Assembly (NCBI GenBank): GCA_016214555.1
Contig: JACROF010000012.1
Coordinates: forward strand, 70,066-134,065
Direction of reading: 5' to 3'
Source: Candidatus Levyibacteriota bacterium
Lineage (GTDB): Bacteria; Patescibacteriota; Microgenomatia; Levybacterales; UBA12049
Length of the DNA: 64,000 nt
Shown in pieces: positions 23,757 to 47,572 of this stretch. Position numbers and translations under genes: made by a program. Position 1 is the stretch's first letter; every line of letters begins with the position of its first letter. The notes under the pieces were generated by a model. The model was not told the origin of the DNA. It saw nothing but the letters and a program-made list of their open reading frames with translations, and did no database searches.

Positions 23757-24143
23757 CTATACGGACTTACTGGTGAAAAATAGTTCAAGAGTTAAGAGAA
23801 TGCCAACAAGAAGAATAATAAAGAGTGGATGAGTAAGGTGGAGTACACGAAACAAAAGATAGCAAAGAAGAAAAAGAGCAAAAAATATGCCATGCTTTTT
23901 GCTCTTTAGAAAATATGTTGGAAGAGAATAGCCAGCGATAAGAAGTGGAAGAGGCACTATCCAAAGTGCAGGAATTGAAAAAAAGAAAAAAGTAATCTTG
24001 TCATAAGGCGAGATGGTTATCAGAAAGAAAATGAGCAGGAGAAGAAAGATAATTCCAACAATGAGGTAAAAAATATTTCTTTTTCTCCTTCTCATAGTTG
24101 AAGCATAGAGCTTTTTTCTTACCCACGCAACGCCTCTTGACAA
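23757..24143 (-). CDS. small membrane protein, unknown function
   Basis: 128 aa, 3-4 hydrophobic helices, divergent from hrcA. No motif. Confidence 0.4.
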   Translation of the reverse strand: MSRGVAWVRKKLYASTMRRRKRNIFYLIVGIIFLLLLIFFLITISPYDKITFFFFSIPALWIVPLPLLIAGYSLPTYFLKSKKHGIFFALFLLCYLLFRVLHLTHPLFIILLVGILLTLELFFTSKSV

Positions 24144-24165
24144 AAAATAGCACTCTTGGTATTAT
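24136..24165 (+). promoter_or_regulatory. sigma70-type promoter of hrcA operon (TTGACA -18- TATTAT)
   Basis: ttgaca at 24136-24141 and tattat at 24160-24165. The -10 lies inside the CIRCE spacer, the classic arrangement for HrcA-repressed promoters. Confidence 0.45.
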
Positions 24166-24173
24166 AGTGCTAA
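24147..24173. promoter_or_regulatory. CIRCE inverted-repeat operator (HrcA binding site)
   Basis: aTAGCACTC-ttggtatta-TAGTGCTAA versus consensus TTAGCACTC-N9-GAGTGCTAA: 9-bp arms, 9-nt spacer, one mismatch per arm. Located 10 nt upstream of hrcA. Confidence 0.65.
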
Positions 24174-24182
24174 TTCAAGATT

Positions 24183-24917
24183 ATGCATAACTTGACTCAG
24201 AGACAGATTGAGATTCTCAAAGCAATTATTGAGGATTATATCGAGACAGCAGAGCCAGTTGGTTCTGAGACCCTTGAAAAGAAATACAGCCTAAGTGCTT
24301 CTCCTGCAACGATTCGAAACGAGATGGTTAGACTTTCTGAATTTGGATATCTCAAAAAACCGCATTCGTCAGCAGGACGTGTCCCAACGCCTGAAGGAAT
24401 GAAGTTTTATGTCTCACAGCTCATGAGAGAGAAAGTGCTTTCGACAGTTGAGGAGGTAGCTCTAAAGGAGAAGGTTTGGGACTATCGCGAGAGAATGCAG
24501 CGTTTCCTTAAGGAAGCAACACGATCTCTTGCTGACAAAACAGGTGCTTTAGCTGTGGCAACTTCCCAAGATGGCGATGTCTTTATTTCGGGATATTCAA
24601 ATATTTTGGAGATGCCTGAATTTTTTGACATTGACATTACGAAGACTCTTCTTTCAGCTATTGATGAGTCAGAATATTTATTTAACCTTTGTCAGAAAAT
24701 GACCCAGGAAGGTGATGAGATCAATATACTGATGGGAGAGGATTTAGGTTCACGACTTCAGGGCCCTTATAGTTTTGTTTATACTCATTATGAGACTCCT
24801 ATGCATGGCGCAGGAGAGATTGGAGTAATTGGGCCGGTTCGCTTGAATTATACAGTCGTTGTGCCTACAGTGAGGTATTTTGGAGATCTTATTGAATCAA
24901 TTGCAAAAGGTTGGTAA
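24183..24917 (+). CDS. hrcA: heat-inducible transcription repressor HrcA (short form)
   Basis: 244 aa. N-terminal winged-helix with ILKAIIEDYIETAEPVGSETL...SPATIRNEM, typical of HrcA. CIRCE element upstream. Confidence 0.85.
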   Translation: MHNLTQRQIEILKAIIEDYIETAEPVGSETLEKKYSLSASPATIRNEMVRLSEFGYLKKPHSSAGRVPTPEGMKFYVSQLMREKVLSTVEEVALKEKVWDYRERMQRFLKEATRSLADKTGALAVATSQDGDVFISGYSNILEMPEFFDIDITKTLLSAIDESEYLFNLCQKMTQEGDEINILMGEDLGSRLQGPYSFVYTHYETPMHGAGEIGVIGPVRLNYTVVVPTVRYFGDLIESIAKGW

Positions 24918-24922
24918 AAATT

Positions 24923-25402
24923 ATGTCAGATGGAAAAAGAAATAAGAAACAAGAACAGACAGTTGTAGACAAGTCAGAAGAAGTTGAAGTGATTGAAGGT
25001 CATGCCTTAGAGTGGGAGAATAAGTACAAAAGAGTGCTTGCTGACTATCAGAACCTTGAAAAAAGAGTACGAGATGAAAGATTGGAATTAGTACGATCTT
25101 CAAATAAGGAATTGCTCTTGAAATTTTTGCCTATTTTAGATACAGTATTATTAGCAAAGCAGCACGAGCAAAATCAAAATCTTACAATTATTGAGGATCA
25201 GTTCTTTAGTATTCTCAAACTGGAAGGAGTGATAAAAATTGCTACGGTCGGAGAGCATTTCGACCCCTCAACAATGGAAGTTGTTACATTAACGCAGGGA
25301 CAAGAAGGAATTGTTATACAGGAGGTACGCCCAGGCTATCTGCTATATGATAAATTGCTGCGTCCAGCACAAGTTATAGTAGGCAACGAGGACAAAAAAT
25401 AA
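24923..25402 (+). CDS. grpE: nucleotide exchange factor GrpE
   Basis: Coiled-coil N-terminal region then a C-terminal beta domain. Sits between hrcA and dnaK. ATG at 24923 preferred over the TTG at 24911. Confidence 0.85.
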   Translation: MSDGKRNKKQEQTVVDKSEEVEVIEGHALEWENKYKRVLADYQNLEKRVRDERLELVRSSNKELLLKFLPILDTVLLAKQHEQNQNLTIIEDQFFSILKLEGVIKIATVGEHFDPSTMEVVTLTQGQEGIVIQEVRPGYLLYDKLLRPAQVIVGNEDKK

Positions 25403-25484
25403 AAGTTTAAAGTGTAAAGATAAAAATTAAGATGTATGTTTTTAACTTTTCATTTTTAACTTTTTCTGAGATAGAAAGGAATAT

Positions 25485-27386
25485 ATGGGAAAAATAATTG
25501 GAATTGATTTAGGTACAACAAATTCATGCGTAGCGGTTATGGAAGGTGGCTCACCAAAGGTGATCCATTCTGCGGAAGGCCGCAATGTCATCCCTTCTGT
25601 TGTTGATCCCAAAGCACATGTTGTTGGTGATATCGCAAAGCGTCAAATGGTTTTGAAGCCAAAAGAAACAATTTTTTCTGTCAAGAGATTGATGGGAAAG
25701 AAGTTCAAAGACTCCTCTGTTGCAAATGATATGAAATGGCTTCCATATGCCGTAAAAGCCGGAAGAGATGATATGGCTGTTGTTGAAGTCGATGGTAAAT
25801 CTTATACTCCGCAGGAGATTTCAGCAATGATTTTACAGAAAATAAAATCAGATGCAGAAGCATACCTTGGAGATAAGGTAACTGAGGCAGTTATTACTGT
25901 ACCTGCTTATTTTGACGATAGTCAGCGCCAGGCTACAAAGCAGGCAGGAGAGATTGCTGGTCTTGAGGTAAAACGCATTATCAACGAGCCAACAGCAGCA
26001 GCGCTCGCATATGGATTAGATAAGAAAAATGCACATACTATTGCGGTCTACGATCTAGGTGGAGGAACATTTGATATTTCTATTTTGGAGCTTGGGGATG
26101 GTGTCTATGAGGTAAAATCAACTAATGGAGACACTCATCTTGGAGGAGATGATTTTGATCAGGTAATTATTACTTATTTGGCCGAGGAATTCAAAAAAGA
26201 AAATGCTATCGATTTGAAAAAAGACCCCCAGGCACTTCAGAGATTGAAGGAATCAGCCGAAAAAGCAAAAATAGAACTTTCATCTGCTCAGGAGGCGCAG
26301 ATCAATCAGCCATTTATCACTCAAGGACCAAATGGCCCTCTTCATTTGACGATGACTCTTACAAGAGCAAAGCTTGAGCAGCTCGTCGATGATCTTGTTC
26401 AAAAGACGCTTAAACCCGTTGAGCAGGCAATTAAAGATGCGGGTATAAAAAAGAATGAAGTTGACGAGGTTGTTATGGTTGGTGGAATGACTCGCATGCC
26501 GAAAATTGTCGAAACAGTCTCAAAATTCTTTGAAAAAGAACCAAATAAATCAGTAAATCCTGATGAAGTAGTAGCAATTGGTGCTGCTGTACAGGGAGGC
26601 GTTCTTTCAGGAGATGTTAAGGATGTGCTCCTTCTTGATGTAACTCCTTTGACGCTTGGCATTGAGACAATGGGCTCAGTTTCAACCCCTCTTATAGCAA
26701 GAAATACCACCATTCCTACATCAAAATCTCAAGTATTTTCAACCGCTGCAGATAATCAGACACAGGTAGAGATTAACGTTTTGCAAGGAGAGCGACCTAT
26801 GGCCGCAGACAATAAGTCACTTGGTCGATTTATTCTGGATGGTATTCCTCCAGCTCCTCGTGGTATGCCACAAGTTGAGGTAACATTTGATATTGATGCA
26901 AATGGCATTTTGAATGTCAAAGCTAAAGATAAAGCTACTGGAAAAGAGCAAAGTATTAAGATTACCGGTTCAACTGGGCTTTCAAAAGAGGAAGTTGAGA
27001 GAATGACTAAAGAGGCTGAGCTTCATGCTAAAGAGGATGAAGAGAAGAAAGCGCAGGTTGAAACAAGAAATCAGGCAGACTCTCTTATTTTTACCGCCGA
27101 AAAATCTCTCAAGGATGCAGGGGATAAAGTAAGCGATGATATTAAAAAAGAAGTAGAAGAAAAGATAAAAGCACTTAAAGACATCTTGGATAGTGGATCA
27201 AAGGAGGAACTTGAGACAAAGACTAAAGAGCTTTCAGATCATCTTCAAAAAATTGGTGAAGCTATGTATAAGGATCAAGTTGCATCCACTGAAGCAAATT
27301 CACCAGTGGCAAGCTCAGAGGAGAAGAAAGATGCAAAGGATAGTAATGAGCCTGTTGAAGGTGAGGTAGTCGATGGCCGAAACTAA
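25485..27386 (+). CDS. dnaK: molecular chaperone DnaK (Hsp70)
   Basis: 633 aa. [22 protein letters not shown] and VGGMTRMP Hsp70 signatures. Acidic C-terminal tail. Confidence 0.95.
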
Positions 27387-27810
27387 ACCAGAATTTGTCC
27401 AAGCTCCCTTTCGTATTGTTGAACCTCCCTCAATTGAGGATCCACTCCCTACTGCTGTTCCACCATCTGCTGATATTTTAGCGGGTAGGGTTTTTAGTTC
27501 AGAAGATCAGGCACGATTGACAGAGTTAGAAGAAAAAGTTGAAAGATTATCAAATCAAGGTCAGCCAACAATTGATATTCAGAACGAGATTGCTAGAATA
27601 CGTGGTATAGAGATGCCTTCCATAAAAAGAAAAGAGGGGCCGTTTTTAGAGGATATTATGTCCAGAGAACAAATCGAAGAAAATTTGAGAAATAACCTTC
27701 CTGCTAGTTTTAGCCCACCCCATATAAGAACTGGTCAAGAGGCTAGAGGAGATAGGAGTCCGACATGGAGAGGTCCAAGGCAAAGAGCTGTTTCAAAAAG
27801 AACAAAGTAA
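27373..27810 (+). CDS. hypothetical protein encoded between dnaK and dnaJ (likely disordered, Pro/Arg/Glu-rich)
   Basis: 145 aa ORF filling a 440-nt dnaK-dnaJ gap and overlapping the dnaK stop by 14 nt. No recognisable domain. Compositionally biased. Confidence 0.4.
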
Positions 27811-27826
27811 TATTGCATGAATTACT

Positions 27827-28705
27827 ATGGCACAAGATTATTATTCATTATTAGGAGTTTCTAAATCTTCAAGTGCAGATGAGATTAAAAAAGCCTATCG
27901 TAAATTAGCGCTTCAGTACCACCCCGATCGTAATAAGACTAAAGAGGGGGAGGAAAAATTTAAGGAAATAACCAAAGCCTACGAAGTCCTTTCAGACCCG
28001 CAAAAAAGACAGACCTACGATCAGTACGGATCAGCAGCTTTTGAACAGGGAGGGCCAGGGGCAGGAGGCCCGTTTGGTGGAGGTTTTGGTGGATTTAATC
28101 AGCAAGGTCCTTTTAGTTATACATATTCCAGCAATGGTCAAGGATTTGATTTTGGGGGATTCTCAGATCCATTTGAAATATTTGAACAATTTTTTGGTGG
28201 TGCATCGCCTTTTGGAAGAGGAGAAAGAAGGCAGGTTTATTCTTTGTCGATTAGCTTTATGGAGGCTGTGAAGGGCGCTGAGAAAGAAGTAGAGATAGAC
28301 AAGAAAAAACAAAAAATAAAGATTCCTCCAGGTGTTGATACGGGAACAAGAATGAGGTTTGAAGGTTTTGATATTGTATTTGAAGTAAAGCAAGATAAAA
28401 GATTTCATCGTGAAGGCTCAGATATTATCACTGAGGAAACAATATCTTTTCCTCAAGCAGTTCTTGGTAGCGAGATAAAGGTTGAAACAGTTGAAGGAGA
28501 GGTTACCATCAAGATTCCAGCGGGAACACAGCCTGAGACATTGATACGACTTCGAGAAAAAGGAATCCAAAGACTCCGAAGTTCAAGCAAGGGTGATCAT
28601 TATGTGCGAATTAAGATAGATATCCCTAAAAACATTTCAAAAAAGCAGAGAGAAATTCTTGAGGCTTTTGATTCGGATTCGCAAAATAAAAAGAACTGGT
28701 TTTAG
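27827..28705 (+). CDS. dnaJ: DnaJ-like co-chaperone, type II (J domain + G/F-rich region + C-terminal substrate-binding domains, no zinc finger)
   Basis: 292 aa. J domain with HPD ([13 protein letters not shown]). Gly/Phe-rich linker. No CxxCxGxG repeats. C-terminal DnaJ_C-like region. Confidence 0.8.
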
Positions 28706-28796
28706 CGCATTTTCTGCACAAAGATTTATTTGTAATTTCTATACCAAATTCGTATACTTGAAATACGTGGCGCCTTAGAATTGGTGCTTTATTTCT

Positions 28797-29180
28797 ATGA
28801 AAATTGTCTCTGCTCGACAATGGATTCAAAAATTATCTTATTCGTTATTTTTTGTGGATGTTGCGTATGCTGCCGATCCAGCTTCCTCTTGTGATTCTTC
28901 AGCTGTTATGACACAGCTTGGGTGTCTACCGAAAGATCCTGTACTCTTTGTTAGTAGTTTTTATGGTATTGGACTGAGTATGGTTGGTGGAGTAGCTCTT
29001 CTCTTTATCATTATTGGAGGTTACACAATTCTTACTTCTCGAGGGAATCCAAGTCAAATTAACGCAGGAAAAAGTTATATTTTTTACTCGATTGCTGGCC
29101 TTATTCTTGCAATATTTGGCTATCTCTTTATAGAGATATTTTTGGTTGATCTTCTTCATATACCTGGTCTTGGACACTAA
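28797..29180 (+). CDS. small secreted two-TM protein, VirB2/TrbC pilin-like (hypothesis)
   Basis: 127 aa. Signal peptide ending AYA-ADP. Mature ~100 aa with two hydrophobic helices separated by a short polar loop (TSRGNPSQINAGKS). Size and topology resemble TrbC/VirB2 T-pilin subunits. Stop is 2 nt before the next gene. Confidence 0.5.
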   Translation: MKIVSARQWIQKLSYSLFFVDVAYAADPASSCDSSAVMTQLGCLPKDPVLFVSSFYGIGLSMVGGVALLFIIIGGYTILTSRGNPSQINAGKSYIFYSIAGLILAIFGYLFIEIFLVDLLHIPGLGH

Positions 29181-29181
29181 A

Positions 29182-32100
29182 ATGAAAAAATATTTTTTGT
29201 TCTGCCTTCTTTTTATCGTAGGACTTTTTTTATTTACCACCTCTCAGCAAGCGTATGCTGTTTCGATAGATAGCAAAACTCTTATTGCGGCAGATGCATT
29301 ACCCCAGGATGGATCGTGGATTATTGATCCTGAGGTGACTAGAATCGGCAAAAACGCATCACGATCAGGGCAGTTATTGGATTGGACACTCAAGGATTAC
29401 CAATGGTCAACTGCAGCATCGCAGCAAAGTAGCGATAATCCTCTTGCATCATTTTGGATCATTATTCAGAGAATTGTTTATGCCTTGTTTTTAGTTGTAA
29501 TTCTTATAACGTCATTTATTCTCATTGTAACTAGAGGGAAAAGTCTGTCTGCTAAAAGATTTCTTCCGAGGTTTTTACTCGCAGTAATTCTTGTGACTTT
29601 TTCTTTTTCACTTATTCAATTTATTTATCAATTTGTTGATATTTTACAAGGATTTTTTCTTAACAATTCTCGTGGGCAAATTATTTCATCAAAAGATCTT
29701 TTATTTATAGGCTTTCAGTACACAGACTTTGAAGGACTTCGTCGATTCGGTTCGTCATTTGACGAGTCTGCATTTATGTCGTTGATCCTTGTTAAATTTA
29801 CTGCATTTACTTATTATGTTATGGCTCTTCTCCTTATTTTTAGAAAGATTCTTCTTTGGTTTTTTATAGTTCTCTCTCCCCTTTTCCCAATACTGCTCTT
29901 GTTCTATCCAATGAGGAATACGGGAAAGGTTTGGATCGGTGAGTTTTTTAGATGGGTACTTTACGCACCTCTTTTTGCTATTTTCTTATCGGGCCTTGTA
30001 AGATTGTGGGATTCTCCTTCAGGACTTCCTCTCCTTTTTAATTTTACTGGAGTAAAGCAGGGGGATATGGTATATCCGACTGCGGTAAATATTTTACTTG
30101 GTGGACCTGGGCAAAAAATCGGATTGAACAATAGCGTTAATCTTCCTGATACATTTGCACTTTATGTAGTGTCTCTTATCATGTTGTGGGCAGTTATTAT
30201 TCTGCCATTTATTCTTCTCCAGATTTTTTTAGATCACATGATGGCGTATAATTATCAAAATAATCCTATAACAAAACAAATTACTAATCTTATGGCTTCA
30301 AGGCTTGCGCCGCCCTCAAAGCCACTTGGTCCTCCTCCATCTTCTAATCAACCAGCAGGTCTTGCAAGAAATATTCCCTTTGGTAGGCATTTTGAGGTTC
30401 CATCGTCTGTTGGTGATGCTAAGGAGATTCCAAGAAGTTTTGCACAGCAAAATAAGTCTCAGACAGTAGTGAAGAAAAATGTTGTTACAAAATCCGTAGT
30501 GAATAATCTAGCCAATCTTTCAATTCCAACGATGAGGGATATTGCCAGATATGAAATAGAGAAAAGATCTCATGACACTTCTCGAATTGCAGAAATTGAA
30601 AGAACGAAAAAAACTCTTATTCAGATAGCAAGTCCGACAACTCTTTCTATTTCTAGTGAGCGAGAAAGATATCAGGCTATCAGGGAAAGGTTAAGACTTG
30701 CTTCTCAGAAAGGTGATACTGTTGCCACAAATATACTCCAGGCTGCAAATACATATAATTACTATTCTTCGCAAGACACTTCTTCGACCACGATTAATCA
30801 AGGAGTTAAAAATCTTGCTAATCCAGAGAGAATCCTTTCTACAGTGGAAAAAGAAAAAGTCGAAAAAATAAAAGAGAGAATTATTCAGAATGCTCTTGAG
30901 GGTAACCCTATTGCTAAACAAGTTGCTGCAGGCCTAAGTCAGTTCTCCTCAAGCCAACTTGCAGTTCTCAAACAAATACTTCAGGCATTATCGTCATCAG
31001 CTCTAAATCAGAACTCTTCTAATCAATATGAGTCGCTTCGCGAGCGTCTCGTAACCGCAAGCAATTCTGGGAATACAGTTGCAACTACGTTTATTTCTAC
31101 AATTGAAAAGTCATCTTCTGAGCAAGATGTTAAGAGTTTATTTGAGGCGTTAATTAAAGCTGAAAAAGAAGGAAATCCAATAGCAAAAGAGGTTATGAGC
31201 TCTGTTGATAAAAATGTCTCACAGGTATCCACAGAGAATTTAAAGCAGGTGATTAAAGAAGCTAAAGATAAAAAAGATCCATTAGGGGTAATGATTTTTG
31301 AGATGATGCAAGAATCATCAGTCAAAGAACAAAAAGTTCCCGCCTCAGCGGCAACGAAATTAAAAAGCGGCACTTTTCCTGTTGTTAATAGGATTCAAGA
31401 AGTATCTTTTGATGATTACGAAGCTGTGAAGAAAATGTGGAGGGAAAATTATAAAAATTTGAAGTCTGCTGGATTTAATGGTGATAGTAGAAGAGATGAG
31501 ATCAATAATGATATTTCACATATGCAAGAAACGATTAGCTTACTTTCTTCAGGGAATCAAGAGATGATCGAACAAGGAATGAGACAGGTATCTGATATTC
31601 TGCCATTTCTATTAATTGGAGGATTCTCTCAGACTGAAATTATTACCTATCTTAAGGCAAAATTGGAGGCTGCAAAGTCTACACTTGAAGACTTAACAGC
31701 GAAAGACGATGAAGAAGACACGCTTCTTGCTGCTGAAAAAGCTGTTAAGCACACCTCAAAAACTATGACGATGAGTGCTGAGGCGCCTATTTCTGCAAAG
31801 CAGGTTATTCCTCAAGAGGTTTCAACGGGGTCTGTGCATACGACTCTACTGTCTCCTCCTTTGGCTAGTGGGGCAACATCAATTTTTAATATAGTCAACC
31901 TCCCAATAGTTACCTTGCGAGATATTGTAAGAATTGACCAGAAAAGAGAGACAACAACAGACCAGAAGAGTGAAATCACTATTCTTAAGCAAAATCTTCT
32001 CAATATTGGACATCCTGAGAGGGTAACTTCAGTAGACGAGCGTGAAAAATATAAAACATTGCACACTCAGCTGGTTGAGGAGGATAAGAAAGGAAATCCT

Positions 32101-33150
32101 TCAGCAAAGATTATTATCAATGCAATTAGTGAGCTTGACAACCAAACGTCTGATAGCGAAATTGATAACGCAAATAAGTTTATTTCACTTCTTGGGCAGC
32201 AAATGATTCCAGGTGATAAAAATGAGGATAGGGAAAATGAGATTTCACAATTGATTTTGAGAGAAAGTGCTTCAAATCCTCTAGCTGAATCTCTTCGTGT
32301 GGCTTCACAGCAGTGGTATAACCTTCAGAAAGAAAAAACTAAAGATTTTCTTGAGAAAATTAGCAATCCTTCTCTCCTACCAACAGCCGCTGAGCAGATG
32401 CAGTATACGAAGCTAATGGATAGGATTTCTTTGGCAAGCTCAAACGGAAACAGCGTTGCATCATATGTAGTTAAAGCAATCCGTGAAAAAGATATAGATC
32501 ACGAAATACCTCAAATATATGTAAAAATTGCTGAAGGAGAAAGGAATGGAGATGAGCTTTCAACATATCTCATGAGAACTATCTATAACACAGCCTCACA
32601 TGATACTAAGATAGACGCTGAGTCTATTTTCCAAAAGACAGTATCACAGGGGAGAGATGGCGATCTCTTTGCTTCAAAACTCTTAAAAGAGATTGCAAAA
32701 ATCGCCAAACAATTAGGTAAAAAGACAACGCCTGTCACCTCTTTGCCTCATGCAAATCGAATACAGACTGTTACTCTTGATGATTATGAAGAGGTAAAAA
32801 GAATGTGGGAGGAGAATTATGCATCATTTCTTCTAGATTCTTCAAAATCTTCTGATGAGAAAAAGAGAATAATAGAAAAGGATGTTAATTCATTAACTCT
32901 AGCCATAAACTTGCTTTCATCAACTGATTCTGAGCAGATGAGAAGAGGAATGGATATGGTAAGCGATTTGTTGCCTTTTCTTCTCTTGGGAGGATTTAGT
33001 CAGCCTGAAATTATCGGGTATCTAAAGGCAAAACGTACTGCTGCAGAGTCTGTTTTTAAAAGTGAAAATAGCTTGAATGAGGAATTGGTTAGTAGAAATA
33101 AAAGACAGGAAAATCCAATACAACAGAAAGTTCAAGTCGTCGATGAATGA
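29182..33150 (+). CDS. giant (1322 aa) secreted polytopic membrane protein: N-terminal VirB6/TrbL-like multi-TM domain plus long modular repeat-containing hydrophilic C-terminal region
   Basis: ATG at 29182 (the track's 29146 is TTG). Signal peptide MKKYFLFCLLFIVGLFLFTTSQQAYA, then ~6 TM helices within the first ~370 aa. About 950 aa of hydrophilic sequence follow, with several repeated module types (see repeat features). Confidence 0.8.
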   Translation: MKKYFLFCLLFIVGLFLFTTSQQAYAVSIDSKTLIAADALPQDGSWIIDPEVTRIGKNASRSGQLLDWTLKDYQWSTAASQQSSDNPLASFWIIIQRIVYALFLVVILITSFILIVTRGKSLSAKRFLPRFLLAVILVTFSFSLIQFIYQFVDILQGFFLNNSRGQIISSKDLLFIGFQYTDFEGLRRFGSSFDESAFMSLILVKFTAFTYYVMALLLIFRKILLWFFIVLSPLFPILLLFYPMRNTGKVWIGEFFRWVLYAPLFAIFLSGLVRLWDSPSGLPLLFNFTGVKQGDMVYPTAVNILLGGPGQKIGLNNSVNLPDTFALYVVSLIMLWAVIILPFILLQIFLDHMMAYNYQNNPITKQITNLMASRLAPPSKPLGPPPSSNQPAGLARNIPFGRHFEVPSSVGDAKEIPRSFAQQNKSQTVVKKNVVTKSVVNNLANLSIPTMRDIARYEIEKRSHDTSRIAEIERTKKTLIQIASPTTLSISSERERYQAIRERLRLASQKGDTVATNILQAANTYNYYSSQDTSSTTINQGVKNLANPERILSTVEKEKVEKIKERIIQNALEGNPIAKQVAAGLSQFSSSQLAVLKQILQALSSSALNQNSSNQYESLRERLVTASNSGNTVATTFISTIEKSSSEQDVKSLFEALIKAEKEGNPIAKEVMSSVDKNVSQVSTENLKQVIKEAKDKKDPLGVMIFEMMQESSVKEQKVPASAATKLKSGTFPVVNRIQEVSFDDYEAVKKMWRENYKNLKSAGFNGDSRRDEINNDISHMQETISLLSSGNQEMIEQGMRQVSDILPFLLIGGFSQTEIITYLKAKLEAAKSTLEDLTAKDDEEDTLLAAEKAVKHTSKTMTMSAEAPISAKQVIPQEVSTGSVHTTLLSPPLASGATSIFNIVNLPIVTLRDIVRIDQKRETTTDQKSEITILKQNLLNIGHPERVTSVDEREKYKTLHTQLVEEDKKGNPSAKIIINAISELDNQTSDSEIDNANKFISLLGQQMIPGDKNEDRENEISQLILRESASNPLAESLRVASQQWYNLQKEKTKDFLEKISNPSLLPTAAEQMQYTKLMDRISLASSNGNSVASYVVKAIREKDIDHEIPQIYVKIAEGERNGDELSTYLMRTIYNTASHDTKIDAESIFQKTVSQGRDGDLFASKLLKEIAKIAKQLGKKTTPVTSLPHANRIQTVTLDDYEEVKRMWEENYASFLLDSSKSSDEKKRIIEKDVNSLTLAINLLSSTDSEQMRRGMDMVSDLLPFLLLGGFSQPEIIGYLKAKRTAAESVFKSENSLNEELVSRNKRQENPIQQKVQVVDE
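31381..31695 (+). repeat. intragenic ~105-aa repeat module copy A (RIQEVSFDDYEAVKKMW...LPFLLIGGFSQTEIITYLKAKLEAAKS)
   Basis: Protein-level duplication within the 1322-aa ORF. Copy A is ~40-45% identical to copy B, including DDYE.VK.MW.ENY, LPFLL.GGFSQ.EII.YLKAK and AA.S. Nucleotide level is diverged. Confidence 0.6.
32745..33070 (+). repeat. intragenic ~105-aa repeat module copy B (RIQTVTLDDYEEVKRMW...LPFLLLGGFSQPEIIGYLKAKRTAAES)
   Basis: Paralogous to copy A at 31381-31695. Conserved hydrophobic patch LPFLLxGGFSQ and basic YLKAK motif. Confidence 0.6.
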
Positions 33151-33193: not shown

Positions 33194-35866
33194 ATGCTTG
33201 GAAATTTATTTAGTTCTCATAAAGATCCTAAAGAGGAGTTGGTCTCGCCTCAAGAGCAAAATCCAGCAGATACAAGTACTGCTGCTAATACATTGACACA
33301 CATAGAGTCACGAATGGATCCAACGCTTAGGCAAAATGTCTCAGCGCTATCCCATCTTGATTCTCGTACTACGCAAGTTCTTCATCACGCTCAAGAAGAG
33401 ACAAGGCGCATTAAGCAAGCTCAAATACAGCCTGAACAAGTATTGCTAGGACTACTATACGATGAGGAAGTTTTTAAGCTACTTGAAGGTTTTGATGTTG
33501 ATGTTGCAAAGCTTGCCCAGGAAATTCAGAGTAAAGAAGAAGTAGGAAGTTTCCAAGAGCAGCCGATGTTGAGTAGCGCAAGTACTCAGCTATTTGAGCA
33601 GGCATATAGAGACGCAAAAACCAGAAACGCCAGCTTTGTTTCACCAGAGGATCTTTTGGTTGAGATTTGCAATTTATCTATTGATTCCGTAAAGCTCCTA
33701 GTGGAAAAGGGAGTTACTAAACAACATATTTTGGACAAATTATCGTCGTCTACAGAATACACCACGGGTAAAAAATCAGTTCTTGAACAATTCGCCATAG
33801 ATCTCACTGCTGAAGCAAAAGCAGGGAAATTGGATCCAATCGCAGGAAGAGATAGGGAAATTGACAGACTTGTTCACATTTTACTTCGAAGGACAAAAAA
33901 CAACCCAATAATTATTGGTGAAGCTGGAGTCGGTAAAACAGCGATTGTTGAAGGACTTGCACAGGAAATTGTTGCAGGAAGTATACCATCTGACCTTAAA
34001 AACAAAAAAATTTATCAGCTTGATCTTGCATCGCTTGTAGCTGGCGCTAGCCATAGAGGAGAGTTTGAGGAGCGACTAAAAGGGATAATCAATGAAACAA
34101 TTGCGTCACAAGGTCAAATAATCCTTTTTATTGATGAAATACATACCCTCATTGGGGCAGGTGACACTGACGGCGCTTTGGATGCTTCAAACATAATAAA
34201 GCCCCATTTAGCAAGAGGTCATATGCAGATTATTGGAACAACTACCACAGTTGAGTATAGAAAGCATTTTGAGAAAGATAAGGCTTTCGAGCGACGTTTT
34301 CAACCAATCCTTGCTGATGAACCATCTGAAGAGGCTGCTGTTGAAATGCTGAAAGTGTTAAGGCCAAAATATGAGAAATATCATGGTGTGACAATCCCTG
34401 ATGATACTTTGGTAGATGCCGTTAAGTTATCAAAAAAATATATTGGAGAAAGATATCTTCCTGATAAAGCAGTTGATCTTATCGATGAAGCTTCAGCAGA
34501 TGTAAAGCTTGGACGAATTTCTTTTAAGCAGGATGTAAAGGAATCGGGAGAAAACTCAAATGACACACCGCCTCGTTCACAGGCAACAACGGGTAATGAG
34601 GTGGTAAAGTCAGATATTGAGAGAGTTGTGAGCAATTGGACTGGTATTCCAGTTACAAAATTGACTGAAGACGAGAGTCAGAAGCTTCTTAAGCTTGAGG
34701 ATAATATTCATAAAAGACTTATCGACCAGCAAGAAGCAGTCGTTGCGGTATCTGAGGCTGTACGGAGAGGGAGAATTGGGTTAGCTCCGGCAAATAGGCC
34801 AATTGCATCATTTATATTTCTCGGTCCAACAGGCGTTGGCAAAACAGAATTAGCAAAAACGCTTGCCGAGTTACTTTTTGGGCGTGATGATGCTCTTGTG
34901 AGGCTTGATATGAGTGAATATATGGAAAAGCATGAGGTAGCTAAGTTGATTGGGGCTCCTCCAGGATACGTTGGTTATGAAGAAGGAGGTCAGTTGACAG
35001 AGGCGGTTCGGGCAAAGCCATACTCAATAGTTCTACTTGATGAGGTAGAAAAAGCACATCCTGATGTTTTTAATATTCTTTTACAGCTTTTGGAAGATGG
35101 TCGATTAACAGACAATAAAGGTAATACTATTTCGTTCAAAAATACTATTGTTATAGCTACCTCCAATATTGGAAGTTCGCTTATTCAGCAACAGCTTAGT
35201 GAAAAAGGAGAGCCACAATCGCAGGAAGCTTTTACTAAAGAGTTTAGTGATTTGACAACGCTTGTAACAGCAGAGTTAAGAAAGTTTTTTAAGCCAGAAC
35301 TTCTTAACCGATTTGATGACGTGGTGATGTTTAAGCCTTTGAGAAAAGCAGATATGACGCAGATTGCAAAGCTTGGTATCGGAAAAACAGCAAAATTGCT
35401 TGAAGAGCAGGGGTATCATGTTCAGACAACGGATGCTGCGATTGCGCAGCTTGCGCAGGAAGGATACGATCCTGTATATGGAGCAAGGCCGCTTAGAAGG
35501 CTTATCCAGTCATCTATCGAAAATCGAGTAGCTCTTATGATCATAGGGAAGGAATTTATGCCTGGAGATACTATTGTGATTGATTATAACTCGACAAAAG
35601 GAGGTTTTAATTTCTCAAAAGGCGGTGGTCAGAGTGTAGTTGGTCCAGAAAAAAACATCGATAATCGAGACAATAATACTCAACCTCTTGATATGGTTGA
35701 AAAATCTCATCTTCCTGAGTCAGGAACAGGGGAAGCTCAGGCGTTACCTAAGGAGCCTGAGTACGCGCAGCCCAGCTTCAATCCTCCATTCTTGAGTAAT
35801 CAAAATAACAACGTCAATGGTGAGACTTTTGTAAAGAACGAAATCACTTCTGCCTCAAGCAATTAA
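33194..35866 (+). CDS. Hsp100/Clp-family double-AAA+ ATPase (ClpC/ClpA-like architecture, no ClpB M-domain, no recognisable ClpP-docking IGF/IGL loop), Q/N-rich C-terminal tail
   Basis: 890 aa. Two Clp_N repeats. NBD1 Walker A GEAGVGKT and Walker B ILFIDEIH. Only ~45 aa between NBD1 and NBD2. NBD2 Walker A GPTGVGKT, Walker [11 protein letters not shown], sensor ATSNIG and GARPLRR. No G-F/G-L tripeptide after the sensor-1 region. Confidence 0.85.
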
Positions 35867-35937: not shown

Positions 35938-36267
35938 ATGTCTGCCCTGTTTTTCTACCCATTTTACGTATTGAGATTTTGGTATGGTGAAGGTCCTGTT
36001 GTTGTACTCAAGCATTTCTATATTTTTAATCGTGTATTTCTTGATTTTTTTTCTGTAAAAATTCTTCTAAAAACCTTTTTTCTTCCTGTAAAAAATGAAT
36101 ATCGCGATGGTTTGGTCGGATTTTCCATTGGAATTGGGATTTTTATGAAAAGCTGTTTACTTATCATTGCAGCATTTTTATTTATGATACTTCTTGTTTT
36201 TGAAGTGGTGATTTTTGGAGGATATATGGCATTTCCTTTGATTACAGTAGGATTGTTGTTGTGGTAA
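35938..36267 (+). CDS. small polytopic membrane protein, unknown function
   Basis: 109 aa, 3 hydrophobic helices. Stop overlaps the start of the following membrane-anchored Clp-like gene, suggesting translational coupling. Confidence 0.4.
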   Translation: MSALFFYPFYVLRFWYGEGPVVVLKHFYIFNRVFLDFFSVKILLKTFFLPVKNEYRDGLVGFSIGIGIFMKSCLLIIAAFLFMILLVFEVVIFGGYMAFPLITVGLLLW

Positions 36268-36269
36268 TT

Positions 36270-38669
36270 ATGGATAGACAACTCGTATCAATATATTTGT
36301 TTTATAGAAGTATAGAAGTAAAATTTATAAGAGTTGCTCTTCCAGTGATTCTTCTGATGTGGATTCCCCTTGTGCTTATTACTAACGAATCCCCTAATGT
36401 TCCCATTGTTATTTTTAATCTTTATCTTATGGGAGAACTTTTTTATCGGTATAAGATTTGTACATTAAGAACAAAAAATACCCTTCTGGATCAGGAAGAT
36501 CCTTATAAGAGTATGTCTTTAGAGGTAGCTTCAGTATTTCAAAATGCTTCATCAACAAAGGAAATATTAAGACGCTTGTTTAGTCATCAACAGGTCATTT
36601 TTGGGTTACAAAGAATGGGTGCTTCTCCGCGAGATGTAGTGAGTATTGAATACGAAGCCAACGTGTTGCTGCTAAGAGCGTCTGAGCTCGCTAAAAAAAT
36701 ACAGGGAACAAAGATTACTCTTATAGATGTGCTCAATTCTTATCTGATTGTCTCAGATGAGAAGACAAATTTCCTTTTACATAAGCGATTAAAAGAGAAT
36801 GACTTGCTGCAGATTTCTGTCTGGGTTAGGAAGATCTATCAATTTGAGGAAAAACCAAGGGAGCTATTTTTTGCAAATTACGGAGGAGGATTGGGGCAAT
36901 GGCTTGTGTCTGGGTGGACCTTGGAAACTAAAAAGTATACACAAGTTTTTCCTCAGAAGGATCTTAATCTTGATGTTTCTATTATTGGCAGAGAAAAAGA
37001 ATATCAGTTATTACAAGAAAGCTTATTAAAACCTGAAAGAAATAATATTCTAATTGTTGGAAAAACAGGGGTAGGCAAAGAGCAGCTGCTTAGAAGGCTG
37101 GCAGAGGATAGTTTTAGTGGAAAACTTGATAAGAATCTTTCATATAAAACAATTCTTGAAGTACTCGTTGGATCACTTGTCGCTGGAGCAAATCAACAAG
37201 GCGATCTTCAGGAGCGTTTAAAAGAAATCATTGAGGAGGTTAGCCATGCAGGCAATGTTATTCTTTATATTCCTGAATTCCAGAACCTTCTTGGCGGGAC
37301 CAGCTTTTCACTTGATCTTTCTGGGGCATTAATGCCATTCCTTCGTGATGGAAAGCTTCCGATTATCGCAAGTGTCACTGACGAAAATTTTAAAAGATAT
37401 ATACAAGGTAAACCTATCTCTGAAATGTTTTCTGATATTCATCTTACGGCTCCCAGTAGTAATCAGGCTGAGCAGATGATAATGGAAAAGATCGTGGAGC
37501 TTGAAAGAAAACATGCAGTAATAATTACTTATCCTGCTGTCAAGACATCGGTGATGTTTGCACAAAAATATTCTGATAGTTCTGAGTTACCAGGAAGTGC
37601 AATTGATCTACTGTCTGATGCAATGAGTAAAAAAGCTTCTGAAGATATTCATGATGCACATAATAAGTTTCGTTTAGTTACTGAGAAAGATATTATTCAT
37701 ACAGTTGAACAGCGAACAAGTATTGCGTTGGATGATCCAACAGAAGAAGAGAGTTCAAGGCTACTTCATCTAGAATCTATTATGCATGAGCGGATCATAG
37801 GTCAAGATCAGGCTATTAAAGCTATTGCAGAATCTCTTCGAAGACTCAGAACAGGGGTTCAGAGTCTAGATAGACCTACCTCCTTTTTGTTCCTGGGCCC
37901 AACAGGTGTTGGTAAAACTGAAGTAGCAAAAGTATTATCAAATATTTATTTTAATGGTGAAGCGAATATGATCCGTCTTGACATGAGCGAGTATGCATCA
38001 ACCGATGGTATTGAGAGATTAATAGGAGCATCTACCAGACAAAACGATCTGAGAGGTGAGTTGACTGAGAAAATCCATGATCATCCAAATTCCCTTGTCC
38101 TTCTTGACGAATTTGAGAAAGCTCATTCGTCGGTGGCAAATCTCTTCCTTCAGATTCTTGATGATGGTAGATTGACCGATGGGAGAGGTAATACTGTTTC
38201 TTTCAGTAACGCGATTATTATCGCAACATCGAATGCTGGAGCAAATTTTATTCACGATGCGATAGAAAAAAATGTATTTCTTGATAGCTCGTTTCAGAAG
38301 CAATTGAGAAGCTTTCTTCAGGCAAATAATATATTCAAGCCAGAATTACTCAACCGCTTTGATGATATTGTTGTTTTTCGGCCACTCTTAAAGGATGATG
38401 TTAGGAAAGTAACAGAAATTTTGTTAAGAGATCTTATAAGTCACATGAAAGAAAAAGACATAACACTCTCCGTTGAGGATATTGCAGTGTCTAAAATAAT
38501 ATCAGAAGGTTATGATAAAGAATATGGAGCAAGACCAATTCGGAGATATATCCAAGACAATCTTGATGATCTTATTGCGAAAGAAATCCTTAATAAATCA
38601 ATTAATAGAGGAGATAGGGTAAGAATTGGCGTCAATCAAATAAATGAGTTTGTTATTTATCGAATTTAG
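36270..38669 (+). CDS. membrane-anchored Hsp100/Clp-like ATPase with degenerate (catalytically dead) first AAA+ domain and intact second AAA+ domain
   Basis: ATG at 36270 (GTG at 36261 in the track). Two N-terminal TM helices, then a Clp_N-like repeat pair. NBD1 Walker A reads VGKTGVGKEQL (canonical T/S replaced by E), Walker B reads ILYIPEF (D replaced by P), and the Arg finger is lost. NBD2 is canonical ([36 protein letters not shown]). Confidence 0.8.
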   Translation: MDRQLVSIYLFYRSIEVKFIRVALPVILLMWIPLVLITNESPNVPIVIFNLYLMGELFYRYKICTLRTKNTLLDQEDPYKSMSLEVASVFQNASSTKEILRRLFSHQQVIFGLQRMGASPRDVVSIEYEANVLLLRASELAKKIQGTKITLIDVLNSYLIVSDEKTNFLLHKRLKENDLLQISVWVRKIYQFEEKPRELFFANYGGGLGQWLVSGWTLETKKYTQVFPQKDLNLDVSIIGREKEYQLLQESLLKPERNNILIVGKTGVGKEQLLRRLAEDSFSGKLDKNLSYKTILEVLVGSLVAGANQQGDLQERLKEIIEEVSHAGNVILYIPEFQNLLGGTSFSLDLSGALMPFLRDGKLPIIASVTDENFKRYIQGKPISEMFSDIHLTAPSSNQAEQMIMEKIVELERKHAVIITYPAVKTSVMFAQKYSDSSELPGSAIDLLSDAMSKKASEDIHDAHNKFRLVTEKDIIHTVEQRTSIALDDPTEEESSRLLHLESIMHERIIGQDQAIKAIAESLRRLRTGVQSLDRPTSFLFLGPTGVGKTEVAKVLSNIYFNGEANMIRLDMSEYASTDGIERLIGASTRQNDLRGELTEKIHDHPNSLVLLDEFEKAHSSVANLFLQILDDGRLTDGRGNTVSFSNAIIIATSNAGANFIHDAIEKNVFLDSSFQKQLRSFLQANNIFKPELLNRFDDIVVFRPLLKDDVRKVTEILLRDLISHMKEKDITLSVEDIAVSKIISEGYDKEYGARPIRRYIQDNLDDLIAKEILNKSINRGDRVRIGVNQINEFVIYRI

Positions 38670-38722: not shown

Positions 38723-39877
38723 ATGAAAAAGAGAGCATACAAAAGGAAGCATGTTGTTTTAAAGACAAAACGACATAAAAAATTTCACCATAAAGTTATA
38801 TCTTTTTTTAGGGGAGATGGCGGAATTTATGTAATTTTTATTCTTGCTACCGCAATGGCTGGAGCATTTGCCTTAACAGGTGGTATTCTTCCTCAGCTTA
38901 ATCCTACTCCACCTGCATCAAGCCAAGTTGATATAGATACCGAGTCAGCAAAGCAAAGCAGCGAGAATGCTTTGCAGCTTGTTGACATAAAGCCAAAACC
39001 GACCGAGGTGCCTACGCCTACCAGTGAAATTACTCCCAGTACCTCGCCTAGTATCTCTCCTAGCATCTCGCAGCCTCCTCCTGTTCAGGAATGTTATAAC
39101 AAGACGTTAGTGACTTTGATACTTGATTATTCAAATTCAATGCTAACACCAAATTCAAGTCCAAAATATACTGCTTTAAATTCTGCGCTTGGATCTTTCT
39201 ATACACAATTGAGTGGTTATGCTAATGCTGGCATCGGAGCTCAAGCATTTACTGGAAAAGATTCTGGGAATACACCGCTAGATGGTGTATTTAACCTGTT
39301 GAATTACAAATTAGTAAAGAATGTTTCATCTTCAGATAAGCAAAAAATTACTCAAGTAGATAAAGCTGTTTTAGAAAATAGTAATGGTGGAGGAACCTAC
39401 ATGAGAAATGGGTTTTCCTATACTATTTCCAAATTAGAATCAGCTCCCTCTTCTTTTGCAGGATATAGAAAAGTTGCCATAATTTTTTCTGATGGTATTC
39501 CTGAGGAGACATGGGAAGATAGAGAATCCCACAACGGGGATGCAAATTCTTCTTCAGTTTGCTTAGGGAGTGGTAGATATCAGCAGAGATGTTTTTCAAT
39601 TTATCAAGACCCACGAGTAAATTCAACAAACAGATTACCTGATCTAGTAAAGGGACTAAAAGATATAACAGATAGTGTATACGTCGTTGGTATTTATGAT
39701 AGCAAAAGTGGTGAAGGGCTAGTTTTTAAAGATAATTTGATTAGCCTGTTACAGACGATTGCAGAGAGGAGCACGACCCCATTCTATCAATTTATAGACT
39801 TAAAAGATGATCCAGCGGCGGCATTGCAAAAATTAAATCCAGCTTTTCAAAATATTTTTAAAGACGTTTGTAAGTAA
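38723..39877 (+). CDS. membrane-anchored von Willebrand factor type A (vWA) domain protein with MIDAS motif
   Basis: 384 aa. Highly basic N-terminus (KKRAYKRKHVVLKTKRHKK), one TM helix, a P/S/T-rich linker, then a vWA domain with LILDYSNSM (DxSxS MIDAS) and later AIIFSDGIPEE. Confidence 0.7.
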   Translation: MKKRAYKRKHVVLKTKRHKKFHHKVISFFRGDGGIYVIFILATAMAGAFALTGGILPQLNPTPPASSQVDIDTESAKQSSENALQLVDIKPKPTEVPTPTSEITPSTSPSISPSISQPPPVQECYNKTLVTLILDYSNSMLTPNSSPKYTALNSALGSFYTQLSGYANAGIGAQAFTGKDSGNTPLDGVFNLLNYKLVKNVSSSDKQKITQVDKAVLENSNGGGTYMRNGFSYTISKLESAPSSFAGYRKVAIIFSDGIPEETWEDRESHNGDANSSSVCLGSGRYQQRCFSIYQDPRVNSTNRLPDLVKGLKDITDSVYVVGIYDSKSGEGLVFKDNLISLLQTIAERSTTPFYQFIDLKDDPAAALQKLNPAFQNIFKDVCK

Positions 39878-46444: not shown

Positions 46445-47572
46445 ATGCCCGATTCAAACCTGCCACCTTTTCCAACTCCAACTTTGTCAAAGGTAATACC
46501 ATCAACAGAATCTGAGTCTCCGGATCAGATACGAAAGCTTGGGGAGAGAGTCGAAAAAGCTCAGCTACCTGATACCTTAAGAGAAAACCTTTTAGAAAGA
46601 GTATCAAGACTCGCACTTTTACGAGCTAGCGCTGGTTTTATGAGTGCGGACTACATTCTTGAATATGAAAAGACTTCAAGTTATATCAACTGGGTAGTCG
46701 GACTACCCTGGCATAAGCAGAGTGTTGATGTTCTTGATCTTGCGAAAGCCAAAGAATCAATGGATAAATATCATTATGGTCTAACTGAGATTAAGAATAG
46801 AATTCTCGATTATTTGGCAACTCTTATTTTGAATATGAGACAACAAAAGCGAGATGTAGTTCAAAGAGCGCCTATTTTATGCCTTGTTGGTTTGGCAGGT
46901 ACAGGGAAAACAACTCTTGCTAAGTCGATTGCTGAAGCGCTTGGTAAAGAATTTGAACGTATACCCTTTGGCGGAATGGCAGATGCTCGGGCTCTGCGTG
47001 GACAATCGAAGGCTTTTCCCGATGCTGAACCCGGATATGTGATAAAGAAATTATTTCATGCACAAATGAACAATCCTGTCATACTTCTTGATGAGTTGGA
47101 TCGTGTGACAGAGTCGTCAAGAGCTGACATTATGGGTGTTCTCGTTGAGCTACTAGACCCTGAGCAGAACTTTGCCTTCACTGATCACTATGTTGATTTT
47201 CCATTCGACCTTTCAAATGTTTTGTTTATTGCAACAGCAAATAATACGAGCAATATCTCAACTGCTGTGTTGGATAGGCTTGAGATTATTCAAATGCCTT
47301 CTTATACTGACGAAGAAAAGACTGTAATTGCAAAACAATATCTTTTTGGAAAGATTCGTTTGGAGGCAGGACTTTCGGAGCAGCAAATGATGGTTGATGA
47401 ATCTGTGTGGCCTGGAATTATTAGGCCACTTGGCTTTGATTCCGGAATTCGTTCTCTTGAGAGAACAATTCAAGGAATGTGCAGAAAGGTAGCTCGGGAG
47501 ATTGTTGAAGGGAAAGTTCAGTCAGCTCGGATTAGTGATGCCAATCTCAAACAATATTTACCAACATGGTAA
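46445..47572 (+). CDS. Lon-derived standalone AAA+ ATPase (Lon helical linker + AAA+ module; no LAN N-domain, no protease domain)
   Basis: 375 aa. LPWHKQSVDVLDLAKAKESMDKYHYGL matches the Lon pre-AAA helix. Walker A GLAGTGKTTLAKSIA. VLVELLDPEQNFAFTDHYVDFPFDLSNVLFIATAN matches the Lon sensor region. The ORF ends where the Lon protease domain would begin, and RNase J starts 10 nt later. Confidence 0.75.
   Translation: MPDSNLPPFPTPTLSKVIPSTESESPDQIRKLGERVEKAQLPDTLRENLLERVSRLALLRASAGFMSADYILEYEKTSSYINWVVGLPWHKQSVDVLDLAKAKESMDKYHYGLTEIKNRILDYLATLILNMRQQKRDVVQRAPILCLVGLAGTGKTTLAKSIAEALGKEFERIPFGGMADARALRGQSKAFPDAEPGYVIKKLFHAQMNNPVILLDELDRVTESSRADIMGVLVELLDPEQNFAFTDHYVDFPFDLSNVLFIATANNTSNISTAVLDRLEIIQMPSYTDEEKTVIAKQYLFGKIRLEAGLSEQQMMVDESVWPGIIRPLGFDSGIRSLERTIQGMCRKVAREIVEGKVQSARISDANLKQYLPTW

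Follow-up and report, generated by a model that had tools for sequence, protein, structure and literature searches.

What does a Clp/Hsp100-type ATPase do when it is anchored in a membrane and has lost the catalytic residues of one of its two rings? The question is raised by a 64,000-nt stretch of DNA from Candidatus Levyibacteriota bacterium (GCA_016214555.1, JACROF010000012.1, positions 70,066–134,065, forward strand; hereafter the window), in which a gene for a 799-aa ATPase (36270..38669) directly follows a gene for a 109-aa membrane protein (35938..36267), both, like all window features located below, on the + strand. Hsp100 proteins are soluble, tyrosine-driven threading machines, and a GenBank protein from a metagenome-assembled genome (MAG), annotated as ‘ATP-dependent Clp protease ATP-binding subunit [Candidatus Levybacteria bacterium]’, has exactly the sequence of the 799-aa product. 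The ATPase belongs to a conserved family with an N-terminal hydrophobic hairpin, a first nucleotide-binding domain (NBD1) predicted to be non-catalytic, a catalytically complete second one (NBD2) and no pore-loop tyrosine in either. This family appears to be a previously undescribed Hsp100 derivative in uncultured bacteria: full-text literature searches returned no description of an integral-membrane (transmembrane-anchored) class-I Hsp100 nor of the 799-aa family, and no family-specific model was found in NCBIfam, Pfam or PADLOC.

The membrane-anchored ATPase

The mechanically called reading frame spans 36261–38669 from a GTG, and the ATG at 36270 yields the 799-aa protein, which is clearly a class-I Clp/Hsp100 derivative. 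It has the layout of that class, with two tandem AAA+ modules and a C-terminal D2-small domain (Pfam AAA_2, 6.7e-47; ClpB_D2-small, 5e-21), NBD1 being matched only by AAA_lid_9 and weakly by generic AAA models, and it scores well below the cut-offs of the NCBIfam equivalogs for ClpB (TIGR03346, 426.7 bits vs 1232) and ClpA (TIGR02639, 398 bits vs 993). An AlphaFold2 (AF2) model built from a 93-sequence alignment (predicted local distance difference test (pLDDT) 87.4, predicted template modelling score 0.79) found ClpC, ClpB and ClpA protomers as its best PDB matches in Foldseek (E down to 1e-53; target-normalised TM-scores ~0.85 on the AAA+ core), and the protein aligned over its full length to PDB ClpC and ClpA. 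Pfam detects no peptidase domain in it, and the HE[AGSC]GH motif occurs nowhere in the window, which sets it apart from FtsH. Ahead of NBD1 lies a helical domain that may be a diverged Clp N-domain (aa 78–189; 36501..36836), as suggested by full-length Foldseek alignment to ClpC and by hhalign against canonical Clp_N domains (probability 62.6%, E = 7e-5, 85 columns); the Pfam Clp_N model matched none of 16 family members. It is followed by a family-specific linker motif, GGGxGxxLxxGWTxETKKYT (aa 205–224; 36882..36941), in which G205, G207, W216, T217 and E219 are invariant and the KKYT part is the counterpart of the normal pre-NBD1 motif; AF2 confidence is low in this region.

A sequence-only reading of the locus, to be checked by alignment to ClpA, ClpB and ClpC, had proposed that the first ATPase domain (NBD1, 36990..37673) is catalytically dead. 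In a residue-level phmmer alignment to B. subtilis ClpC (PDB 3j3s/3j3t) and an alignment to the canonical soluble paralogue encoded in the window, all of its motif substitutions stand. The Walker A motif GEPGVGKT of ClpC is GKTGVGKE (aa 264–271; 37059–37082), with Glu for Thr; Walker B, ILFIDE in ClpC, is ILYIPE (VILYIPE, aa 330–336; 37257–37277), with Pro for Asp; and both Arg fingers are gone, ERRF being replaced by SEMF (ISEMF, 37416–37430), so that the arginine pair is E385-M386. The pore-loop-1 segment (AGANQQGDLQER, 37182–37217) likewise has no Tyr, the ClpC sequence TKYRGEFEDR corresponding to ANQQGDLQER (KYR to NQQ).

These changes are shared by the homologues retrieved with the N-terminus and NBD1 (n = 117, a lower bound, used for the motif counts). 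Pro occupies the Walker B position in 116/117; Glu is found in Walker A in 94/117, with Thr or Ser at this position in 17. The P-loop Lys is kept in 106 (Arg in the remaining 11), and an Arg-finger arginine occurs once at the first position and never at the second. Because the substitutions are fixed across at least 117 homologues, NBD1 is best described as a conserved pseudo-ATPase rather than a decaying domain, and it is predicted to be non-catalytic. With the P-loop Lys kept and the residues for Mg2+ coordination and trans-activation lost, it probably either binds nucleotide without turnover or is empty, and would then have a role in assembly or regulation. Across 27 genomes that encode both paralogues, mean pairwise identity is 0.50 (NBD1) and 0.61 (NBD2) for the membrane form, compared with 0.75 and 0.78 for the soluble form; by this measure the membrane form is evolving faster, but clearly under constraint.

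NBD2 and its D2-small domain (37674..38666) form a catalytically complete site. Walker A (GPTGVGKT, 37896–37919), Walker B (LLDEFEKA, 38097–38123), sensor 1 (ATSN, 38223–38234), the Arg finger (LLNRFD, 38346–38363) and sensor 2 (GARPIRR, 38526–38546) are all canonical, and their catalytic residues are invariant family-wide. The first description, that NBD2 keeps every catalytic motif and that only one ring can be active, is therefore supported; the GYVG pore loop is nevertheless gone. The segment that reads GSPPGYVGYDEGGQLT in ClpC is GASTRQ--NDLRGELT here, with GYVG deleted (GASTRQNDLRGELT, 38025–38066), and the family consensus is GAPPG(E/Q)GEERGELT. Neither ring thus has an aromatic pore loop of the KYR or GYVG type, the window protein having NQQ in NBD1 and GASTRQNDLRGE in NBD2, and none of the 117 family members has a pore-loop Tyr in either ring or a GYVG. 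Two further class-I features are missing: ClpC residues 415–470, the M-domain, have no counterpart in the alignment, and the ClpP-docking loop ([IVL]G[FL]) is absent, DAIEKNVFLD standing opposite ClpC KYVGFN at a family deletion.

The N-terminal hydrophobic helical hairpin (aa 15–63; 36312..36458), which carries a conserved R21 and an intramembrane E56, is modelled by AF2 as helices 15–37 and 43–63 (pLDDT ~90). The proposal of two N-terminal transmembrane helices holds in part: the hairpin is present and helix 1 is transmembrane-competent (Kyte–Doolittle hydropathy 2.5; >1.6 in 99% of 71 orthologues), but helix 2 is only marginally hydrophobic. Membrane tethering itself is supported, and the anchor, like the degenerate NBD1, is common to the orthologues; two hydrophobic segments were detected within the first 130 residues in 83/117 family members, vs 0/87 GYVG-containing Clp proteins used as a control. 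K and R together average 3.4 residues ahead of helix 1, 0.75 in the connecting loop of 6–8 residues and 3.4 after helix 2. Such enrichment on both flanks but not in the loop fits an N-in/C-in topology that would leave the ATPase on the cytoplasmic side. A wrongly chosen start, with the hydrophobic region belonging to the upstream small open reading frame (ORF), was rejected, as the hairpin lies inside the ATPase ORF in every orthologue; nor is it borrowed from the small ORF, which is in another frame and is separately conserved.

The small partner and the wider family

The 109-aa gene is a real and strictly conserved partner of the ATPase gene. In 81 of 83 loci the gene directly upstream of the ATPase gene encodes a homologue of the small protein; the other two loci are contig ends with <300 nt of upstream sequence. 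The distance from its stop codon to the ATPase start is −19 to +20 nt in 74/80, including a 4-nt ATGA-type overlap in 28. Although it had been noted as a small membrane ORF overlapping the ATPase start, with the ATG start it does not overlap in the window, where its TAA ends at 36267, 2 nt ahead of the ATPase ATG, and far from being incidental it is the only universally conserved partner. The protein forms a long helical hairpin (AF2 pLDDT 95.5) with the signature FW..E.P ... LLRTFF.P and the invariant residues W15, P20, N31, T46, F48, P50, K52, E54, Y55, R56, G58, L59, F62, G67, K71 and P100; E89 is conserved in 71/72 and D78 in 56/72, and some of the invariant charged residues lie within the long hydrophobic helix. 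A hidden Markov model search of 1.84 billion representative sequences recovered only 48 clusters at 50% identity, of which 47 comprise stand-alone proteins of ~70–150 aa and one is a spurious 673-aa repeat protein. No fusions were found among these clusters; an apparent fusion to the ATPase in locus L056 proved to be an artefact of masked N bases. PADLOC gave no match for the small protein.

The search with the N-terminus and NBD1 returned >117 proteins of ~800 aa with 34–62% identity and ~100% coverage including the hairpin, and two family-specific peptide patterns matched at least 116 species-representative genomes, from which 80 loci were fetched. Record titles name Levybacteria, Levyibacteriota, Microgenomates and Patescibacteria, together with many ‘uncultured Gammaproteobacteria’ MAGs. 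The latter titles (‘uncultured Gammaproteobacteria bacterium’, within loci L004–L083) look like mislabels, because these loci have a short IF2 and the same order of dnaK operon, gene pair and nusA as in Levybacteria. nusA lies downstream in 55/59 loci, and in 34/48 dnaJ is no more than 10 kb away; when neighbouring genes were clustered without bias, no universal neighbour emerged beyond nusA and infB.

More distant relatives were reached through the small protein. For each of its four weakest profile matches (E 3.5e-5 to 7e-4), the next gene encodes a Clp-like protein with two AAA+ modules (837, 888 and 849 aa, and one truncated), and a search seeded with one of these led to further subfamilies. 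Database labels for the proteins, here as in the 799-aa family, are generic, of the ClpA/ClpC type. Among three further members the partner is 2 nt upstream in one, lies one gene away in another, with a pilin-like gene between, and was not found in the third. None of the 23 members in the resulting motif table has NBD1 Arg fingers, an NBD1 pore-loop Tyr or a GYVG Tyr. In NBD2, Walker A/B, the Arg finger and sensor 2 are retained throughout, and two N-terminal hydrophobic segments occur in nearly every member. Their NBD1 Walker A/B motifs form a range, canonical at one end (GKT/S with DE) and degenerate at the other (GKE/PE, GRK/ND, GGM/DD and further variants). The combination seen in the window pair (hairpin, no NBD1 Arg fingers, no pore-loop Tyr, intact NBD2 and an adjacent small protein) thus recurs in the Levybacteria family and in remote relatives. 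Judged on this distribution, the anchor, the partner and the loss of trans-acting arginines and of tyrosines are shared derived features, the NBD1 Walker motifs seem to have decayed secondarily and by degrees, and the association between small partner and Clp-like gene is much older than the Levybacteria family. One distant member (L087:2511-5177) has an N-terminal double CxxCxGxG, a DnaJ-type zinc-finger signature, before its hydrophobic segment.

Proposed mechanism and known systems

What the pair does is a best guess from computation on uncultured organisms. To the computed features (anatomy, conservation and selection, gene coupling and taxonomic spread) it adds steps that we infer, namely hexamer formation, topology, subunit contact, the ability of NBD1 to bind nucleotide and the kind of client. 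Our preferred reading, held tentatively at just short of an even chance, is a membrane-embedded, NBD2-powered remodelling machine that would act on clients in or close to the membrane, or on its own partner complex. The 109-aa and 799-aa products would be two subunits of a membrane AAA+ machine derived from class-I Clp/Hsp100, the large subunit being held in the cytoplasmic membrane by its N-in/C-in hairpin, which probably packs against the hairpin of the small subunit; both would bring conserved charges into the membrane (E56 in the ATPase; K71, E89 and, in most, D78 in the partner). Since the anchor is N-terminal, the N-domain/NBD1 face of the ring would be turned toward the bilayer, a geometry like that of FtsH and Msp1. 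NBD1 would form a non-catalytic ring that, having kept its P-loop Lys, may still bind nucleotide, and NBD2 would be the sole motor, working as an oligomeric ring, as its retained Arg finger points to catalysis at subunit interfaces.

ATP hydrolysis by NBD2 would remodel or release clients with little or no processive threading. The absence of both pore-loop tyrosines argues against conventional threading, and with the NBD2 loop also short and polar or acidic, processive threading is unlikely; because the M-domain and the ClpP loop are missing as well, so are the activities of a DnaK-coupled ClpB-type disaggregase and of an unfoldase feeding ClpP. The earlier suggestion of an unfoldase is accordingly doubtful, since not one of the 117 family members or of the 23 distant relatives examined has either canonical pore-loop Tyr; the pseudo-ATPase adaptor offered beside it is a possible role for the 799-aa protein. 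A bolder version of the preferred reading, which seems to us somewhat unlikely, would make the pair part of an unrecognised, Patescibacteria-wide class of Hsp100 derivatives without threading, in which NBD2 hydrolysis would be coupled, through the hairpin and an obligate small subunit with buried charges, to the remodelling of a membrane complex, NBD1 being dead or on the way to it.

Several observations weigh against a dedicated, non-threading membrane machine of this kind. Helix 2 of the anchor is only marginally hydrophobic (Kyte–Doolittle 1.0 in the window protein, family median 1.8), carries the conserved Glu at position 56 in 63/72 and has a positive apparent insertion energy on the Hessa scale, so that the anchor could be monotopic. 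Gene contexts outside Levybacteria differ (SecG, pilin-like genes, mraZ-ftsI, RF1), which makes adjacency to the dnaK operon clade-specific and weak as functional evidence, and leaves any proteostasis flavour resting mostly on homology. Moreover, the loop after NBD1 Walker B (37290–37325) shows, family-wide, a 2-residue deletion and a conserved F/Y (116/117), and in Hsp104/ClpB this loop lines the pore; some threading is therefore conceivable.

That last residue is the starting point for the alternative that survives best, a threading dislocase, in effect an FtsH/Msp1-like extractase without protease, using substitute pore residues such as this F/Y. The N-terminal anchor would set the NBD1 entry face at the membrane as in FtsH and Msp1, the aromatic in the pore-proximal NBD1 loop is conserved, the NBD2 motor is intact, and the genes lie among heat-shock genes in Levybacteria. 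We nevertheless regard a dislocase as unlikely: both canonical tyrosines are lost superfamily-wide, the NBD2 loop is shortened to a polar, acidic or Gly/Ser-rich sequence, and the only ring that keeps an aromatic is the one unable to hydrolyse ATP.

Several characterised systems invite comparison. With the class-I proteins ClpC, ClpA and ClpB/Hsp104 it shares two AAA+ modules, ClpB_D2-small, a canonical NBD2 active site and an N-terminal helical domain that may be distantly akin to Clp_N, but the 799-aa protein adds a membrane hairpin and an obligate small membrane partner and is without the NBD1 catalytic residues, pore-loop Tyr, M-domain and ClpP-docking loop. FtsH, Msp1/ATAD1 and Bcs1 likewise use an N-terminal transmembrane anchor that sets the substrate-entry face against the bilayer, with two transmembrane helices per subunit in FtsH; they are classical AAA proteins, each with one ring and aromatic pore loops, and FtsH carries a protease domain as well, whereas the 799-aa protein is an Hsp100 double ring with neither. 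In NSF (D2), p97/Cdc48 (D1) and Pex1/6 (D1) one ring is mainly a nucleotide-binding assembly scaffold and the other the motor. This division of labour is similar, but there the inactive ring usually has near-canonical Walker A/B motifs, while the 799-aa family shows more radical changes (GKE, PE, no Arg fingers) that vary among subfamilies. The plant SMAX1/SMXL/D53 proteins are also Hsp100-derived with degenerate nucleotide-binding domains, and Pfam NBD_SMAX1 weakly matches 3 of 16 family members; SMXL proteins, however, are soluble nuclear transcriptional co-repressors of eukaryotes, and NBD2 of the 799-aa protein is intact. PTEX HSP101 of Plasmodium resembles the 799-aa protein in being a ClpB-like Hsp100 with a membrane complex as its place of work, but it is peripheral, docks by its NBD2 face on a separate pore protein and needs its pore-loop tyrosines; the 799-aa protein is anchored at the opposite, N-terminal end and has no such tyrosines.

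Among known systems the logic of the pair would be closest to that of Torsin and its membrane cofactors, as a functional analogy only. Torsin is a membrane-associated AAA+ relative of Clp whose pore loops are not aromatic (PMC5425593), and Torsin with LAP1/LULL1, in the ER and nuclear envelope of eukaryotes, shares with the pair an N-terminal hydrophobic membrane domain, the absence of aromatic pore loops, dedicated membrane cofactors and one degenerate AAA-like element (PMC5425593). Torsin differs in having a single AAA+ module, an Arg finger supplied by the cofactor and a luminal location, compared with two modules per chain and an NBD2 Arg finger of its own in the 799-aa protein, whose partner has the fold of a small helical hairpin, not an AAA-like one; the 799-aa protein reaches 20.6 bits against Pfam Torsin (cut-off 27), which does not place it in that family.

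Genomic setting, further alternatives and significance

The pair sits in a single co-oriented gene string on the + strand that spans 24–43 kb of the window, in the order hrcA, grpE, dnaK, a 145-aa ORF, dnaJ, a 1334-aa protein, the canonical Hsp100, the 109-aa ORF, the 799-aa ATPase, a 384-aa protein, nusA and infB. The first part, hrcA-grpE-dnaK-(orf145)-dnaJ with its operator and promoter, occupies 24147..28705, hrcA itself lying at 24183–24917. Within 24137–24173, a CIRCE operator (24147–24173), the inverted repeat ATAGCACTC-N9-TAGTGCTAA, carries 2 mismatches, a match of which chance would be expected to yield none. It overlaps a sigma-70-type promoter (11/12) immediately in front of hrcA, and comparable elements precede hrcA in eight related loci. 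No CIRCE element lies directly upstream of the 109-aa/799-aa gene pair in the window or in those eight loci, and control of the pair by HrcA was rejected, CIRCE being found only upstream of hrcA. Promoter and terminator scans of the region gave hits at background level; where spacing is short the pair may be co-transcribed with dnaJ. The 145-aa ORF (27373–27810), without a Pfam match, overlaps the end of dnaK by 14 nt, and a terminator-like hairpin follows dnaJ (28769–28788). Further downstream, 46445–47572 encodes a 375-aa protein consisting of a Lon-type AAA+ module alone (AAA and Lon_lid, without the Lon protease domain), after which come RNase J and FtsK; in locus L091 these three also occur together, close to a distant Clp-like gene of the membrane-anchored kind.

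The tandem arrangement with a canonical soluble Hsp100 paralogue (33194..35866, 890 aa), noted from the sequence, is confirmed by Pfam and NCBIfam. It had prompted the idea of hetero-hexamers, in which the 799-aa protein would be a tethering or regulatory subunit that recruits the soluble unfoldase to the membrane or poisons its NBD1 sites. The genes stand in tandem in the window and the soluble paralogue lies within 10 kb upstream of the pair in 23 of 48 loci with enough flank; both paralogues are without an M-domain and have similar NBD spacing, and a Glu in place of the Arg finger would affect the site of the neighbouring subunit. Yet the paralogue is absent from that interval in 25/48 loci, making it a neighbour in this clade and not a universal partner; distant subfamilies keep the small partner with no adjacent soluble Clp, and the two paralogues are only ~34% identical. 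Where present, the paralogue instead accompanies the giant 1334-aa membrane protein (29146–33150), which stands between dnaJ and the paralogue in 22/23 loci and occurs without it in none, a co-occurrence suggesting that these two form a second, separate module. Hetero-hexamers are thus not supported, and we consider them quite improbable.

Both members of that second module have peculiarities of their own. The giant protein, with no Pfam or PADLOC match, has an N-terminal signal/transmembrane segment, a multi-transmembrane region and two long internal repeats ending ...DILPFLLIGGFSQxEIIxYLKAK.... The soluble paralogue has ClpA-like spacing, no recognisable ClpP-docking [IVL]G[FL] loop and extensions of ~55 aa at the N-terminus and ~90 aa, of low complexity, at the C-terminus; its NBD1 pore loop has His for Tyr in 28/29 orthologues, and its NBD2 GYVG is kept.

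Other neighbours raise a third alternative, that the ATPase is an accessory of an envelope, pilus or secretion process, handling for example pilin-like, single-pass proteins, and not a factor of general quality control. Prepilin-type (N_methyl) genes adjoin the Clp-like gene in two unrelated distant loci (L087, 5196–5933; L090, 6127–6996, here separating the small partner gene from that for the ATPase), SecG and an mraZ-ftsI cluster occur nearby, and in the window the ATPase gene is followed by a membrane-anchored protein of 384 aa (38723–39877) with a basic N-terminus, one transmembrane helix, a Ser/Pro-rich linker and a weakly VWA-like region (Pfam E = 0.005). Such neighbours are not conserved across the family, the 384-aa protein being kept only in the closest relatives (9 loci), and neither Pfam nor PADLOC identifies a known secretion or pilus component; such an accessory role therefore seems distinctly improbable. 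An anti-phage defence system was rejected, as PADLOC gave only Clp-like matches (DolB and PDC-M37B) that are common to the housekeeping paralogue. That the gene is a copy of the soluble Hsp100 gene which has lost its function and is decaying would account for the faster evolution, but this is refuted by the conservation pattern, with an intact frame in at least 117 homologues, substituted residues that are themselves conserved, invariant NBD2 motifs and a conserved, coupled partner gene, and its probability is negligible.

For annotation, the family genes are currently mislabelled as ClpP-partner subunits in many genomes of the candidate phyla radiation (at least 116 species-representative genomes matched), and a ‘hypothetical’ 109-aa protein gains a partner and a context. 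The range from canonical to fully degenerate NBD1 offers a natural series in which to follow the loss of one motor from a double-ring AAA+ protein. A conserved membrane-integral lineage with one silenced ring, no pore-loop Tyr and a full NBD2 site would mean that the Hsp100 scaffold can be reused for a different, probably non-threading task at the membrane, and the pair may serve as a bacterial model for the poorly understood action of Torsin-type proteins. If a class without threading does exist across Patescibacteria, it would be a prokaryotic functional counterpart of the Torsin–cofactor system.

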